Assembly: GCF_045037415.1 (NCBI RefSeq)
Contig: NZ_CP173438.1
Origin: Escherichia coli
GTDB lineage: Bacteria; Pseudomonadota; Gammaproteobacteria; Enterobacterales; Enterobacteriaceae
Direction: 5' to 3' (one strand)
Length of the DNA stretch: 64,000 nt
A program made the position numbers. Below are positions 18,001 to 27,000 of this stretch, piece after piece (positions within the stretch are counted from its first letter, which is position 1; each line of letters starts with the position of its first letter).

Positions 18001-21000
18001 GAAATCGCTGAACGAGCAGGGCCAGCCTGTGGGCGTGGAGATATTTCATTATCGCGACGATCTCTCGCTCGAATCCTACATTTTTGCACGCAGTGCCTCC
18101 ATTGAAGACGACAAAACGTGGATCCTGCATGGTGTGAATCATAAAAAATGGTTGAATGGCAAAGAAACGCTGGAAACATCAGATAATCTTGCCTGGCAAT
18201 CGGCCTTCACCAGTATGGATCTTGAAGAGTTATCGATGCCGGGGAATACTTTTTCTGTCCGTCAGCTTAATCATTACATCCATTATTTGCAGGAAACCGG
18301 ACAACCCAGCAGCGAATACCGCCTTGCACTGTGGGAAAAACTGGGGCAACCGATCCTGACCCTGGCGATGATTTTGCTGGCTGTGCCGTTCACCTTTAGC
18401 GCCCCGCGCTCGCCAGGGATGGGTAGCCGTCTCGCTGTAGGCGTCATCGTTGGCTTACTCACCTGGATCAGCTATCAAATCATGGTCAATCTGGGATTGT
18501 TATTTGCGTTGAGCGCACCTGTTACCGCGCTCGGTTTACCGGTAGCGTTTGTGTTGGTGGCGTTGAGCCTGGTGTATTGGTATGACAGACAACATTAAAC
18601 CCGCCGTGGCGCAACACCACAGCGGGCTCACATTACTGCTTCAGAGTAGCAAATGCCTGAATGATGGCATCGATTTGCTCACGACTGTGGGCAGCGTTTA
18701 CGCTACAGCGCAGCAGAGTGATGCCTGCAGGCGCGGCAGGTGGCAGGATAAGATTCACATAAACGCCCAGCGAAATAAGCTCGCGCCAGATGCGTAAACC
18801 TTCCTCTTTCGAACCGATTATTACTGGCACTACCGGGCTAATATGTGAACTTAACTCATAACCCAGTTTTTGCAGACCGTCATACAGATGGTTGGCGTTA
18901 TCCATCAGTTTTTGCCGCAGCTCTGGTTGTGTGGCAATGGTTCTTAACGACGAGCGCACGGTCGCAATGCAGGACGGAGAAGGAGAGGCGGTAAAAATAT
19001 ACGGGCGGCTGCCGTAGCGCAGCACTTCCATCGCTTCCGAACCGACAGCAAAACCGCCAATCGAGGCCAGACTTTTACTGAAAGTACCAACGATAATATC
19101 CACATCATCTTCAACGCCAACGGCTTCAGCCAGTCCGCGCCCCGTTGCGCCTAACACGCCAAACGAATGCGCTTCATCGACAATCAAATAACCACCGAGA
19201 CGACGTTTGATATCAACAATTTCCGCTAACGGCGCAACGTCACCGAGCATGCTGTAGATGCCCTCAACGATGATAATCGCCTCTTTCGCCCGTTCACCGA
19301 GGCGAACCATGCGCCGTTCCAGATCTTTAGCATCGTTATGGCGGAAACGAATAATTTCTGCGCCACCGAGAGAACAGGCGTCATAAATACTGGCGTGGCT
19401 GTCGGCATCCAGTAACACCACGGCGTTATGGTCGGCAAGTGCGCTGATGACGCCTAAATTAGCGGTATAACCGGTTGAAAAAACGATAGCGGTAGGGCGA
19501 TTGAAAAACTCGGCAATCTCTTTCTCTAACGCCAGGTGCGGCGCATAACTGCCGTTTGCCATACGAGAACCGGTGGTGCCGGTGCCTTGGGCCGCTAACG
19601 CTGCCTGACCTTCGGCGATGGCATCATGATTAAAGGTTAAACCGAGATAATTATTGGTCCCGGCCAGAATCACTTTTTTATTGCCGATCCGACCTTCGGT
19701 GGCGGAATACACTTCATCAATACAGGTGCCAAACGGTGTTAACCCGTTGTCACTAAATTGCAGTCGCTCGCCAGCAAGGCGCGCATATTTATCGTATAGC
19801 CCCATTATTTATTCTCCAGCCATGGAAGTAGAGTTTCCATTAATTGCGCAGGGGTTTTGACATCCAGCAGAATATTAATAGGAATGGAAATATCGAATCT
19901 GTCTTCCAGCATCATTAAGAGATCCATCACTTTGATCGACTCCAGGCCAAGATCGTTGACGAGATCGCTGTCGGGCTTAATTTCCACACCGTTTTCGACC
20001 AAATCCTGTAAACAGGAAAGGATGTAATCCATTACTATTTCACGATTTACCATAGAAACGTTAACACACCTTTAAACAAGACAATCAAAATAGCCCGTTG
20101 CGTAATGCGTGTTCCAGGCTAATCCCGGGAAACCAATTAATATCTTCAGAAATACGGTTATTACTTGCCGACCAGTCGGCATGGGTTAATTCACGGATTT
20201 TCGAACGAGTCAGCATCGGTTCTTTACCCGCCAGACGGCTCAACGCGGTACTGATATCCGCAAGGCAGGTGAGTAGCGGCAGAGGAATACCGACCATCCG
20301 CACGGAACCACAGCGGACATCGGCAACAAGCTGTTGGACACGTTGCCAGTCATAGCCTCCGGCGACGCCATCGCATAATTCATAGGTTTGCGTCTGTACA
20401 GTTTCGGCGCTTAACCACTGACCCACTGCTTGCGCAAAATCGGTGACGTGCAGGAAAGAGAGCTGTGTCTCTGGCGTGCCAAGTCGTGGCAGCAGACCGC
20501 GCAGCATCCAGTCAAACAGCGGTTTTAACTCTTTATCGCCGGGACCATACACGGCTGTCGGGCGAAAAACGCCCAACGTAATTGCGTCAGCCATTGCAGT
20601 CAGCTGTTGTTCGGCGACGTGTTTGGAATTTGCGTACCAGGAGAGTTCGGGATGGCGCGCCGCCAGCGAAGAGATAAACAGAAATCGTTGGCAAAAGCCG
20701 CTCTCTTTTGCCGCTTGCATCAGGCGCAGGCTGCCGTCAACGTTGCAGCGGGTAAAAATCTCTTCTTTGTGCCCGCGCACTTGCCCGGCGCAATGGACCA
20801 CCGCGCTGGCTCCGGTAACCAGTTCGCTAAGCGAATGTGTATCTTCCAGCGAACCGCGCACCCAAGTGAGATTATCATTGACGTGAGCGCGGGCAGTACG
20901 CGTCAATGCGCGAACGTGAAAGCCGCGGGCGAGCAGGTTATCAATAATATATTTACCGATAAACCCGGTAGCGCCCGTCACCGCGACAGTTTGATTCATG

Positions 21001-24000: not shown

Positions 24001-27000
24001 CTGCGCGAGTACCGCTGATGGGCGTGCGGGACGAGTATCAGTTCAGCCGCATCGGCCCGGTGATTGCGTTGTTATTGATTGAAGCCTTACGCGATCCGTT
24101 TGCCCGCCGGAAGATCGATGCGCTGGAGATGTCATGGATCCTCGAAACCAATACAGGCATGAATAACATGCTGGAACGCATTGGGGCGGAGCCGTACAAG
24201 CGTTACCGATTGTATGAAAAGCAGATTTGATGGCAGTCACCCCTGCTTCATCTCCAGCGGCACCGCCGAGCGAATCAAATGGTGGCCTTCCAGCTCGATA
24301 TCGTGGAGATTCTTTTTCACGGTCCGCACATGATCGCGTGCTGCGCGCTGGGCGACGTGCGGCAGCCGCTGCAACACCGCGTTGTAGATCCGCGCATGCT
24401 GGCGATCGATCTGCTTTTTTTGCTGTGGTCGATGGTAGAGATTATTTACGCTGGCAAACACCGAATTAAACATCAGGTCGGTCAATGATTGCAGCGTAAA
24501 CTCCAGCACCTGATTGTGAGAAGCCTGACAAATGGCGAGATGGAAAGCGTGATCCAACTGCGCATGTTCGATCAGCGAAATCTCTTTGTTGTTCTCACTG
24601 GCGGCGAGCATTTTTTCATAACAGCGGGTTATCACAACAAAATCAGCCTGGGTTCCCAGCGTTGCCGCCAGCCTTGCCGATTCGCCCTCCAGTAATGCGC
24701 GAACGTCGAGCAGATCGTACAGCGTTCGCGGCTGCGTACTGAACAGATGGATCAGCGGGCTGGTGTCCTGCACCCGATTAAGCCGTGCGACACGAGAATC
24801 GCGACCCTGCGCCGTTTCAATAATCCCGCGCCCGCGCAGCACGGTCAGCCCTTCACGCAGTGCGGAGCGTGAGAAGCCGAGCTTTTCACACAGTCGACGT
24901 TCCGAGGGAAGCGGCTGACCGACCTTCAGTACGCCGTCGATAATTAACCGTTCGATACTCTCTGCAACCACTTCGCAAATAGGGCGACGTTCATCTTTCA
25001 TTCCCGGACCTCGTGCACAGGTAGGACCAATTTTTCTGTTCTTAACTCGCAAAACACGCACATCACGTAAGTGATTATGTTACATCAATTTAACATTAAG
25101 TTAACCAAGACAAGGTCACAGAGCTGGAAAAAAAATGGTCTGACCGGTAGCTAAAGAGATAGACGAAAACGAAAAGCCCGCTTAATAACTGTTCACAGAA
25201 GCAGCGCGAAAAAATCAGCTGCCACACAACACAACAAAGCGAAGCCTACTCATGAGCATCTTGTACGAAGAGCGTCTTGATGGCGCTTTACCCGATGTCG
25301 ACCGCACATCGGTACTGATGGCACTGCGTGAGCATGTCCCTGGACTTGAGATCCTGCATACCGATGAGGAGATCATTCCTTACGAGTGTGACGGGTTGAG
25401 CGCGTATCGCACGCGTCCATTACTGGTTGTTCTGCCTAAGCAGATGGAACAGGTGACGGCGATTCTGGCTGTCTGCCACCGCCTGCGTGTACCGGTGGTG
25501 ACCCGTGGTGCAGGCACCGGGCTTTCTGGTGGCGCGCTGCCGCTGGAAAAAGGTGTGTTGTTGGTGATGGCGCGCTTTAAAGAGATCCTCGACATTAACC
25601 CCGTTGGTCGCCGTGCGCGCGTGCAGCCGGGCGTGCGTAACCTGGCGATCTCCCAGGCCGTTGCGCCGCATAATCTCTATTACGCGCCGGATCCGTCCTC
25701 ACAAATCGCCTGTTCGATTGGCGGCAATGTGGCGGAAAATGCCGGTGGCGTTCACTGCCTGAAATATGGTCTAACCGTACATAACCTGCTGAAAATTGAA
25801 GTGCAAACGCTGGATGGCGAGGCGCTGACGCTGGGATCGGACGCGCTGGATTCGCCTGGTTTTGACCTGCTGGCGCTGTTTACCGGATCGGAAGGTATGC
25901 TCGGCGTGACCACCGAAGTGACGTTAAAACTGCTGCCGAAGCCGCCCGTGGCGCGGGTGCTGTTAGCCAGCTTTGACTCGGTAGAAAAAGCCGGACTTGC
26001 GGTTGGTGACATCATCGCCAATGGCATTATCCCCGGCGGGCTGGAGATGATGGATAACCTGTCGATCCGCGCTGCGGAAGATTTTATACATGCCGGTTAT
26101 CCCGTCGATGCCGAAGCGATTTTATTGTGCGAGCTGGACGGCGTGGAGTCTGACGTACAGGAAGACTGCGAGCGGGTTAACGACATCTTGTTGAAAGCGG
26201 GCGCGACTGACGTCCGTCTGGCACAGGACGAAGCAGAGCGCGTACGTTTCTGGGCCGGCCGCAAGAACGCATTCCCGGCAGTGGGGCGCATTTCCCCGGA
26301 TTACTACTGTATGGATGGCACCATCCCACGCCGCGCGCTGCCTGGCGTACTGGAAGGCATTGCCCGTTTATCGCAGCAATATGATTTACGCGTTGCCAAC
26401 GTCTTTCATGCCGGAGACGGCAACATGCACCCGTTAATCCTTTTCGATGCCAACGAACCCGGTGAATTTGCCCGCGCGGAAGAGCTGGGCGGGAAGATCC
26501 TCGAACTCTGCGTTGAAGTTGGCGGCAGCATCAGTGGGGAACATGGCATTGGGCGCGAAAAAATCAATCAAATGTGCGCCCAGTTCAACAGCGATGAAAT
26601 CACGACCTTCCATGCGGTCAAGGCGGCGTTTGACCCCGATGGTTTGCTGAACCCTGGGAAAAACATTCCCACGCTACACCGCTGTGCTGAATTTGGTGCC
26701 ATGCATGTGCATCACGGTCATTTACCTTTCCCTGAACTGGAGCGTTTCTGATGCTACGCGAGTGTGATTACAGCCAGGCGCTGCTGGAGCAGGTGAATCA
26801 GGCGATTAGCGATAAAACGCCGCTGGTGATTCAGGGCAGCAATAGCAAAGCCTTTTTAGGTCGTCCTGTCACCGGGCAAACGCTGGATGTGCGTTGTCAT
26901 CGCGGCATTGTTAATTACGACCCGACCGAGCTGGTGATAACCGCTCGTGCCGGAACGCCGCTGGTGGCGATTGAAGCGGCGCTGGAGAGCGCCGGGCAAA

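Follow-up and report, generated by a model that had tools for sequence, protein, structure and literature searches.

A probable dihydroceramide biosynthesis locus in Escherichia coli, its conserved neighbours and its Caulobacter counterpart

Described systems and the E. coli genes already known

In Caulobacter crescentus, the genes aasR, cerR/epi, acpR and spt (CC_1165-CC_1162) act in sphingolipid synthesis together with bcerS/aca (CC_1154). LptF2/G2 also form part of the Caulobacter sphingolipid locus and have been implicated in export of the sphingolipid; a 2026 preprint on this also depicts a sphingolipid locus in E. coli UTI89. In print, CerR has been described as NDUFA9-like, and the literature disagrees on the order of N-acylation and 3-keto reduction.

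For E. coli, Padilla-Gomez et al. (2022; PMC9386255) list exactly the five genes considered here, as ECD_02850-ECD_02854 of strain BL21(DE3), and their Fig. 9 gives yghO as 'aca', the N-acyltransferase of the cluster. According to the same study, co-expression of AasREc, AcpREc and SPTEc yields 3-oxo-sphinganine from L-serine, AcpREc carries 4'-phosphopantetheine, as shown by the incorporation of beta-alanine, and SPTEc prefers acyl-AcpR as its substrate. With empty vectors, or when Spt alone was over-expressed, BL21(DE3) gave no 3-oxo-sphinganine, and the unmodified strain showed no sphingolipid on TLC (PMC9386255). Since the entire locus is present on the chromosome of this strain, its native copy appears to have been silent in these experiments. 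The ligase is also known as EcFAAL (PDB 3PBK), which serves as a model enzyme in the FAAL literature searched, where sphingolipids go unmentioned; in published FAAL assays it transfers acyl groups onto EcACP and rejects CoA, and PMC9386255 likewise finds ACP and not CoA to be the acceptor. In the literature searched, we found no report that unmodified E. coli yields a ceramide or a sphingoid base.

The stretch of E. coli DNA analysed here (64,000 nucleotides of contig NZ_CP173438.1, hereafter the window) contains the same locus as BL21(DE3), strain-level polymorphism being the only difference: the proteins are 100% (AcpR, ECD_02853, and YghO), 99.5% (Spt), 98.2% (ligase) and 95.4% (SDR) identical. 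A preliminary description, made from the sequence, had inferred that the locus makes a sphingolipid-like or other alpha-oxoamine-derived aminolipid, notable in a species generally regarded as lacking sphingolipids. The inference is a correct re-discovery, because the five-gene cluster, yghO included, has been published (PMC9386255, Fig. 9) and partly tested in the laboratory, and the RefSeq annotation already names the gene spt (serine palmitoyltransferase).

Layout and conservation of the locus

All five ORFs are present and intact between positions 18633 and 24230 of the window. In the minus-strand operon, the gene of the fatty acyl-AMP ligase comes first and is followed by those of the extended SDR, the ACP and the alpha-oxoamine synthase; yghO is divergent from this operon. 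Together with the genes beyond spt, the locus comprises the following features.

11246..13630: yghT (-), yghS (+) and yghR (+), paralogous P-loop kinase-like proteins
13676..15025 (+): full-length yghQ, MOP-family flippase
15025..15849 (+): conserved 274-aa protein, all-helical, weakly CHAD-like
15858..16421 (+): YtfJ-family protein
16452..17522 (+): lptF2, LptF paralogue
17519..18598 (+): lptG2, LptG paralogue
18596..18630: hairpin with a 16-bp stem between the convergent lptG2 and spt ends (consensus scan only)
18633..19805 (-): spt, 390-aa PLP-dependent alpha-oxoamine synthase assigned as serine palmitoyltransferase
19805..20053 (-): acpR, dedicated 82-aa acyl carrier protein with Ser39 in the DLGLES motif
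20085..20999 (-): cerR-like extended-SDR reductase, 304 aa
20996..22684 (-): aasR/EcFAAL, 562-aa (RefSeq start) fatty acyl-AMP ligase loading AcpR
22685..23105: divergent intergenic (putative promoter) region, 421 bp, 31% GC
23088..24230 (+): yghO, predicted tandem-GNAT N-acyltransferase, bCerS (CC_1154) homologue, 380 aa

The ligase and SDR genes overlap by ATGA (in ...GGCATGAAT) and the ACP and spt genes by TAATG (in ...AAATAATGGGG). The ligase has the motif YTSGSTRFPRGV at residues 169-180, the SDR has TGATGFIG at residues 8-15 and YANSK at 122-126, the ACP has DLGLESIK at 34-41, and Spt has GTFSKS at 240-245. The coupled minus-strand operon, its overlaps and all motifs of the preliminary description are thus borne out by the ORFs, residues and junctions, and the family matches of Spt (E 1e-180) and the ligase (E 4e-263) place the module far beyond chance. 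It should be noted that the ligase ORF extends to 22744, beyond the RefSeq start, and that an alternative yghO start at 23106 would give the 374-aa form found in most homologues. The hairpin between lptG2 and spt is likely a bidirectional terminator. In the intergenic region (22685..23105), an Rfam search found no element and a promoter scan gave no score above chance; in strain Ecol_AZ146, the region between the ligase gene and yghO carries an IS1.

The DNA of the locus matches that of E. coli Ecol_AZ146 with 100% identity. Among the 5426 complete E. coli genomes compared, 4062 carry 80% or more of the 10.7-kb query. The locus has a GC content of 50%, and K-12 is without most of it, eight genes having been removed by an IS5 deletion. 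The locus is therefore near-core in E. coli and not a rare island, so that the term accessory, first applied to the pathway, does not hold. Within E. coli, purifying selection acts on all 13 genes of the cassette from yghT to yghO, with dN/dS values (about 0 to 0.17) similar to those of glcD and glcC, which flank it, and the protein identity of the cassette is 60-88% across many enterobacterial genera. Linkage to spt was counted in the 39 spt loci for which 8 kb or more of flanking sequence is available on each side: the ligase is linked in 35 and the ACP in 32, and the SDR (30 loci) and a YghO homologue (27 loci) lie no more than 10 kb from spt.

Assignment of the encoded proteins

On NF047599, the curated NCBIfam equivalog model of Rhodobacteria-type serine palmitoyltransferase, Spt scores 600.1 bits (cut-off, 500 bits), whereas all other alpha-oxoamine synthase models leave it under their own cut-offs, including bioF (334 of 426 bits), kbl (298 of 460) and CqsA (221 of 428). 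Sphingomonas SPTs head the PDB ranking with 377 bits (best match 2jg2, E 8e-112), Kbl and BioF reach at most 204 bits, and cysteate acyltransferase stands well below SPT. The synthase hence groups with Spt and not with BioF, Kbl or CqsA, as had been anticipated. It is 47% identical to the SPTs of Sphingomonas paucimobilis and S. wittichii (2JG2, 2X8U) and has the same catalytic residues, including the equivalent of Arg390: H137, D210, H213, K244 and R366 align with H159, D231, H234, K265 and R390 of the S. paucimobilis enzyme. Sphingomonas Arg378, in contrast, corresponds to Leu354 in E. coli Spt and to Leu in Caulobacter too; of the 82 spt sequences in which the motif could be located, 50 have Leu at this site, and Arg occurs in Sphingomonas only. 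Given the activity published for the 99.5% identical SPTEc, the window Spt is expected to form 3-oxo-sphinganine from serine and an acyl thioester.

AcpR is matched weakly by the ACP family models. It has the features of an AcpR, being a small ACP with a phosphopantetheine-attachment Ser39 encoded directly upstream of spt. The ligase scores 874 bits on NF006624 (cut-off, 600 bits) and is ~99% identical over 562 aa to the crystallised EcFAAL, of which it is the same gene product; it is accordingly predicted to be of the FAAL type and to load ACP rather than CoA, an activity taken from the literature.

The reductase, which had been likened to Caulobacter CerR, shares 34% identity (E 7e-43) along its entire length with the C. 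vibrioides gene that separates the ligase gene from the ACP gene and occupies the CerR position. Its distant PDB matches are NDUFA9-type complex I subunits, in agreement with the published description of CerR. Motif, homology and operon position point to a CerR-like enzyme for which 3-keto reduction is predicted. The SDR is without an N-terminal signal peptide, since its Rossmann motif begins at residue 8; this fits awkwardly with the published periplasmic CerR model and counts against a dihydroceramide pathway.

Sequence searches with YghO of Pfam, NCBIfam and the PDB gave no match. Its AF2 model has a pLDDT of 97.1 and finds tandem GNATs as best Foldseek matches (2wpw, 5kf1, 7q3a, MshD; E 4e-16), so that the acyltransferase fold proposed for the 380-aa protein is upheld. 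Over its full length, YghO is 44% identical (E 5e-104) to the gene that follows lptG2 in C. vibrioides, in the bCerS position, and yghO is always divergent from the operon (nine enterobacterial species loci, Serratia, Pluralibacter). It would thus be a homologue of bCerS (CC_1154/CCNA_01212), and N-acylation of the sphingoid base is predicted from sequence and model.

The neighbouring genes add probable transport functions. LptF2 scores 316 bits on TIGR04407, yet is just 29% identical to K-12 LptF, and is probably a permease of a sphingolipid exporter; LptG2 scores 306 bits on TIGR04408, is 28% identical to K-12 LptG, matches an ORF of the C. vibrioides locus (26% identity, E 1e-13) and lies near spt in 20 of the 39 loci. 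YghQ, which in K-12 is shortened by IS5 to 355 aa, is matched weakly by MOP flippase models and is a homologue of CC_1166, with 27% identity (E 1e-43) to the C. vibrioides ORF directly upstream of the ligase gene. The 274-aa protein has no Pfam or NCBIfam match; its AF2 model (pLDDT 91) has the CHAD domain 6qv5 as best PDB fold match (E 0.03, TM 0.48), and it co-travels with spt in Enterobacterales and Dyella. Of 80 loci, 6, all of them enterobacterial, retain the YtfJ-like protein (TIGR01626, 216 bits; cut-off, 151 bits) as part of the cassette. Finally, YghR, YghS and YghT, with a mutual identity of 33-44%, give weak dTMP-kinase-like matches under the cut-off, and in Serratia, Erwinia, Rosenbergiella and Dyella their genes have remained next to the ligase-SDR-ACP-spt operon through rearrangements.

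Proposed pathway, competing readings and the Caulobacter counterpart

We consider, with a probability of roughly 85%, that the locus represents, in E. coli, the dihydroceramide pathway of proteobacteria ('Rhodobacteria-type'). At the gene level, the sphingolipid reading is supported by the SPT model, the CerR and bCerS homologues and the BL21(DE3) co-expression. In such a pathway, AasR/EcFAAL would adenylate a C12-C16 fatty acid and load it onto AcpR, not CoA, and Spt would join acyl-AcpR and L-serine to give 3-oxo-sphinganine; both steps have been demonstrated in experiments with near-identical proteins of E. coli. YghO would then attach a second acyl chain via an amide, and the NDUFA9-like SDR would reduce the 3-keto group to give dihydroceramide, two steps that we infer from homology and synteny with Caulobacter. 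The YghQ flippase and LptF2/LptG2, probably powered by LptB, may carry the lipid to the outer membrane.

The same synthase might instead serve another alpha-oxoamine product, such as a free long-chain amino-ketone or amino-alcohol, a CAI-1-type signal or a sulfonolipid-type base, with YghO being an unrelated neighbouring acetyltransferase. FAAL-ACP pairs typically serve PKS/NRPS chemistry, YghO belongs to no curated family and was once screened in K-12 as a candidate protein acetyltransferase, and its presence near spt in just 27 of 39 loci leaves some room for such a view. However, the CqsA score is about half of its cut-off, cysteate acyltransferase falls far under SPT, and the product of SPTEc with L-serine is 3-oxo-sphinganine (PMC9386255), while YghO resembles the gene in the Caulobacter bCerS position over its full length and its divergence from the operon is kept across Enterobacterales in differing chromosomal contexts; we regard this alternative as improbable. 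That the synthase is a paralogue of BioF or Kbl and acts in the metabolism of biotin or threonine, as suggested by old annotations (8-amino-7-oxononanoate synthase) and by significant partial scores of the BioF and Kbl models, is effectively refuted by the sub-cut-off scores, the PDB ranking, in which SPTs are far ahead, and the published SPT activity (PMC9386255).

Another view is that the locus persists as a silent relic encoding capable enzymes, with no lipid made in nature and no physiological role. The chromosomal copy in BL21(DE3) gives no detectable product, K-12 and about one quarter of complete genomes do without an intact locus with no obvious harm, and the low GC content of the shared promoter region may be typical of silenced DNA. 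Yet the ORFs are all intact here and in most genomes, and both the dN/dS values, like those of glcD and glcC, and the protein identity over many enterobacterial genera argue against decay, which makes a relic quite unlikely. Under the dihydroceramide pathway that we favour, it is conceivable, though we put this forward only tentatively, that the 13-gene cassette, in most wild E. coli and many Enterobacterales, makes and exports an outer-membrane sphingolipid under conditions yet to be found, with a head group unlike known bacterial ones, built by YghR/S/T, the possibly CHAD-like helical protein and the YtfJ-family protein. If wild E. coli makes such a lipid, the textbook lipid inventory is incomplete because of gene loss in K-12, and this could touch envelope robustness, polymyxin interactions and host signalling. 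As the gene-level inference is already in the literature and RefSeq, novelty would lie in the native product, in how it is regulated and in what the additional conserved neighbours do.

The match to the Caulobacter five-activity ceramide set, claimed at the outset, is confirmed by full-length homologues in C. vibrioides (identities: spt 53%, ligase 46%, YghO 44%, ACP 43%, SDR 34%), where the flippase gene is followed by the genes of the ligase, SDR, ACP and Spt and then by those of LptF2, LptG2 and the YghO homologue. Compared with C. crescentus, the E. coli locus thus has the same five activities and the same four-gene operon order, and the CC_1166 flippase and CC_1156/1155 (LptF2/G2) have counterparts too. 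No homologues of cpgABC (ceramide kinase/phosphoglycerate, head group) were detected at the E. coli locus, and the end product may therefore differ; nor was one of lptC2, whose position was covered only in part by the ORFs compared. Conversely, yghRST, the possibly CHAD-like protein and the YtfJ-family protein belong to the E. coli locus and not to that of Caulobacter, and yghO is adjacent to the operon and divergent from it in E. coli, whereas its Caulobacter counterpart lies ~8 kb off.

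The five-gene cluster and its enzymes

The preliminary description had proposed that a five-gene set for ceramide or sphingolipid biosynthesis lies at 18633-24230. Every motif that it quoted and both stop/start overlaps (TAATG, ATGA) are present, and the five ORFs are found at exactly the coordinates that it claimed, yghO being divergent from the other four genes:

18633-19805, minus strand: spt, the synthase
19805-20053, minus strand: small acyl carrier protein (ACP; AcpR)
20085-20999, minus strand: extended SDR
20996-22684, minus strand: acyl-AMP ligase (AasR)
23088-24230, plus strand: yghO

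The ceramide-pathway interpretation is supported by family models, by the comparison with Caulobacter and by published work on E. coli BL21(DE3). The inference is therefore correct, yet it is already known, since the BL21(DE3) cluster has been published together with experiments, and PGAP (RefSeq) had already labelled the gene "spt: serine palmitoyltransferase".

With respect to the synthase, the issue was whether it belongs with Spt or with BioF, Kbl or CqsA, and only the SPT model was passed: Spt scores 600 bits against NF047599, the NCBI curated equivalog for proteobacterial serine palmitoyltransferase (cut-off 500), and remains below the cut-offs for bioF (334 versus 426), kbl (298 versus 460), CqsA (221 versus 428) and, likewise, ALAS. 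Among solved structures it scores 377 bits against Sphingomonas SPTs, compared with 175-207 for cysteate acyltransferase, Kbl and BioF, and 124 for CqsA. The catalytic residues of S. paucimobilis SPT have their aligned equivalents in K244 (the PLP lysine), H137, D210, H213 and R366; the single difference is Leu354 in place of Arg378. We do not read this replacement as a sign of an altered substrate, because Caulobacter and most relatives also carry Leu.

With 874 bits, the ligase clears the cut-off of 600 for the fatty acyl-AMP ligase model, and it is ~99% identical across 562 residues to PDB 3PBK, crystallised as EcFAAL. In independent studies, EcFAAL has been shown to load stand-alone E. coli ACP, not necessarily the adjacent AcpR, and to reject CoA, and its co-crystals contain bound C12 and C14 acyl-adenylates (PMC8460268, PMC11837247). 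These papers, in which EcFAAL serves as a model enzyme, make no mention of sphingolipids, and the structural and lipid literatures on the operon appear to be unconnected. The solved structures related to the SDR are all distant, mainly NDUFA9-type complex I subunits; the Caulobacter ceramide reductase CerR is likewise described in the literature as NDUFA9-type.

Sequence searches with YghO gave no match in Pfam, NCBIfam or the PDB, and its GNAT fold came to light by structure prediction alone. The folds closest to its AlphaFold model (82 homologues, pLDDT 97.1) are tandem GNAT acyltransferases (E 4e-16, TM 0.55-0.63), so that this 380-aa protein is predicted to have the acyltransferase fold that had been proposed for it.

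Published E. coli work and the proposed pathway

The BL21(DE3) cluster was described as aasR (ECD_02851), epi (ECD_02852), acpR (ECD_02853), spt (ECD_02854) and "aca: yghO ECD_02850" (Padilla-Gomez et al. 2022, Figure 9, PMC9386255), and C. crescentus and E. coli BL21 were said to be the only ones in which the five dihydroceramide genes form a cluster. According to the same study, AcpREc carries phosphopantetheine, 3-oxo-sphinganine is formed when AasREc, AcpREc and SPTEc are co-expressed, AasREc requires its own AcpR, and SPTEc favours acyl-AcpR over acyl-CoA. The proteins of the window are 100% (AcpR and YghO), 99.5% (Spt), 98.2% (ligase) and 95.4% (SDR) identical to those of the BL21(DE3) locus. 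No product was obtained from BL21(DE3) containing empty vectors or Spt alone (PMC9386255), and hence the chromosomal acpR and aasR genes seem to lack expression under laboratory conditions. The literature searched contained no report of a sphingolipid from unmodified E. coli.

In the proposed pathway, the ligase would adenylate a fatty acid and load it onto AcpR, and Spt would form 3-oxo-sphinganine from acyl-AcpR and serine, as shown for near-identical proteins. Homology and synteny suggest that the N-acyl chain is added by YghO and that the 3-keto group is reduced by the SDR; which of the two reactions comes first is a matter of dispute between two groups studying Caulobacter. Based on the work on Caulobacter and on gene linkage, the lipid may then be flipped across the inner membrane by YghQ, and LptF2 and LptG2 may extract it so that it can be carried to the outer membrane. 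Many sphingolipid loci of alpha- and gammaproteobacteria contain such LptF2/G2 paralogues, according to a 2026 preprint that draws the UTI89 locus. RefSeq names the genes at 16452-18598 lptF and lptG, as they pass the LptF/LptG equivalog models; these names are misleading, since the genes are divergent paralogues whose products share only 28-29% identity with the essential K-12 LptF and LptG.

Distribution, maintenance and surroundings of the locus

Of 5426 complete E. coli genomes, 4062 carry at least 80% of the 10.7-kb yghQ-yghO stretch. The locus has a GC content of 50%, typical of E. coli, and dN/dS within E. coli is ~0 to 0.17 for every gene of the 13-gene yghT-yghO cassette, near the values of the adjacent glcD and glcC. 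Together, these data show that selection maintains the locus and that it is not in decay. The cassette is also found in Pseudocitrobacter, Hafnia, Serratia, Pluralibacter, Erwinia and Rosenbergiella (60-88% protein identity), with outer flanks that vary among these genera. In K-12 MG1655, IS5 (insH9) lies between a truncated yghQ and yghO, and the eight intervening genes are gone. A RefSeq record named BL21-RIPL (NZ_CP083273.1) has the K-12-type deletion, whereas BL21(DE3) (NC_012971.2) has the full locus.

The divergent region between the ligase gene and yghO (22685-23105, 421 bp) has 31% GC versus 50% for the cassette, and this promoter region is plausibly a candidate for silencing. The window derives from the E. 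coli chromosome, and its stretch 13600-24300 is 100% identical to that of E. coli Ecol_AZ146, except for an IS1 that the latter carries in this same intergenic region. An Rfam search of the locus found no regulatory element, and promoter and terminator scans gave nothing above chance except for one strong hairpin (18596-18630), which marks the operon end and faces the convergent lptG paralogue. The intergenic repeats resemble matches of low-complexity, AT-rich sequence.

Elsewhere in the window (~36000-56000), a block of 30% GC at 40-48 kb represents the serotype-specific part of a group 2 (kps) capsule locus; it includes a CDP-glycerol glycerophosphotransferase. A JUMPstart element is located at 38573-38611, and an IS4 and a gsp type II secretion cluster, the latter truncated, are found alongside. 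Rfam sRNA matches lie 3' of the glc operon (C0719, 31694-31915, 298 bits; STnc490, 35165-35288, 120 bits).

Additional cassette genes and comparison with Caulobacter

The E. coli locus also contains three paralogous P-loop kinase-like genes, yghT, yghS and yghR (11246-13630; 33-44% mutual identity), and genes for a 274-aa helical protein (15025-15849) and a YtfJ-family protein. RefSeq calls two of the three kinase-like genes "dTMP kinase"; their dTMP-kinase matches are under the cut-off. Rearrangements notwithstanding, the kinase-like genes adjoin the spt operon in Serratia, Erwinia, Rosenbergiella and Dyella. Even Dyella and the rearranged Serratia loci keep these additional genes beside it. 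No Pfam or NCBIfam family was found for the conserved 274-aa protein, whose AlphaFold model is confident and all-helical (pLDDT 91); its top PDB fold match, the polyphosphate-binding CHAD domain 6qv5 (E 0.03, TM 0.48), is weak and is not taken as an assignment.

A species-level scan (one genome per species, SPT alignment as query) gave 80 loci, including that of Caulobacter vibrioides. In the 39 loci where spt is flanked by at least 8 kb on either side, the neighbours were the ligase (35/39), ACP (32/39), SDR (30/39), YghO (27/39), LptG2 (20/39) and the flippase (18/39). The C. vibrioides order is flippase, ligase, SDR, ACP and spt, followed by ~6 kb of other genes and then LptF2, LptG2 and the YghO homologue, in agreement with the published CC_1166 to CC_1154 map.

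Identity of the E. coli proteins to their Caulobacter counterparts
Spt: 53%, E 4e-144
ACP: 43%, E 2e-10
SDR: 34%, E 7e-43
Ligase: 46%, E 2e-160
YghO: 44%, full length, E 5e-104
YghQ: 27%, E 1e-43
LptG2: 26%, E 1e-13

The Caulobacter head-group genes have no homologues in the E. coli locus, and yghRST have no counterpart in that of Caulobacter. We considered and rejected homology of YghR/S/T to the Caulobacter ceramide kinase CpgB, because CpgB is an LCB5/DAG-kinase-type enzyme and none of the ORFs in the Caulobacter locus was found to resemble YghR/S/T. What interest is left attaches to the native product, which is undetected, and to the uncharacterised co-inherited genes: yghRST and the genes for the 274-aa and YtfJ-family proteins are the only part of the locus where novelty might be found.
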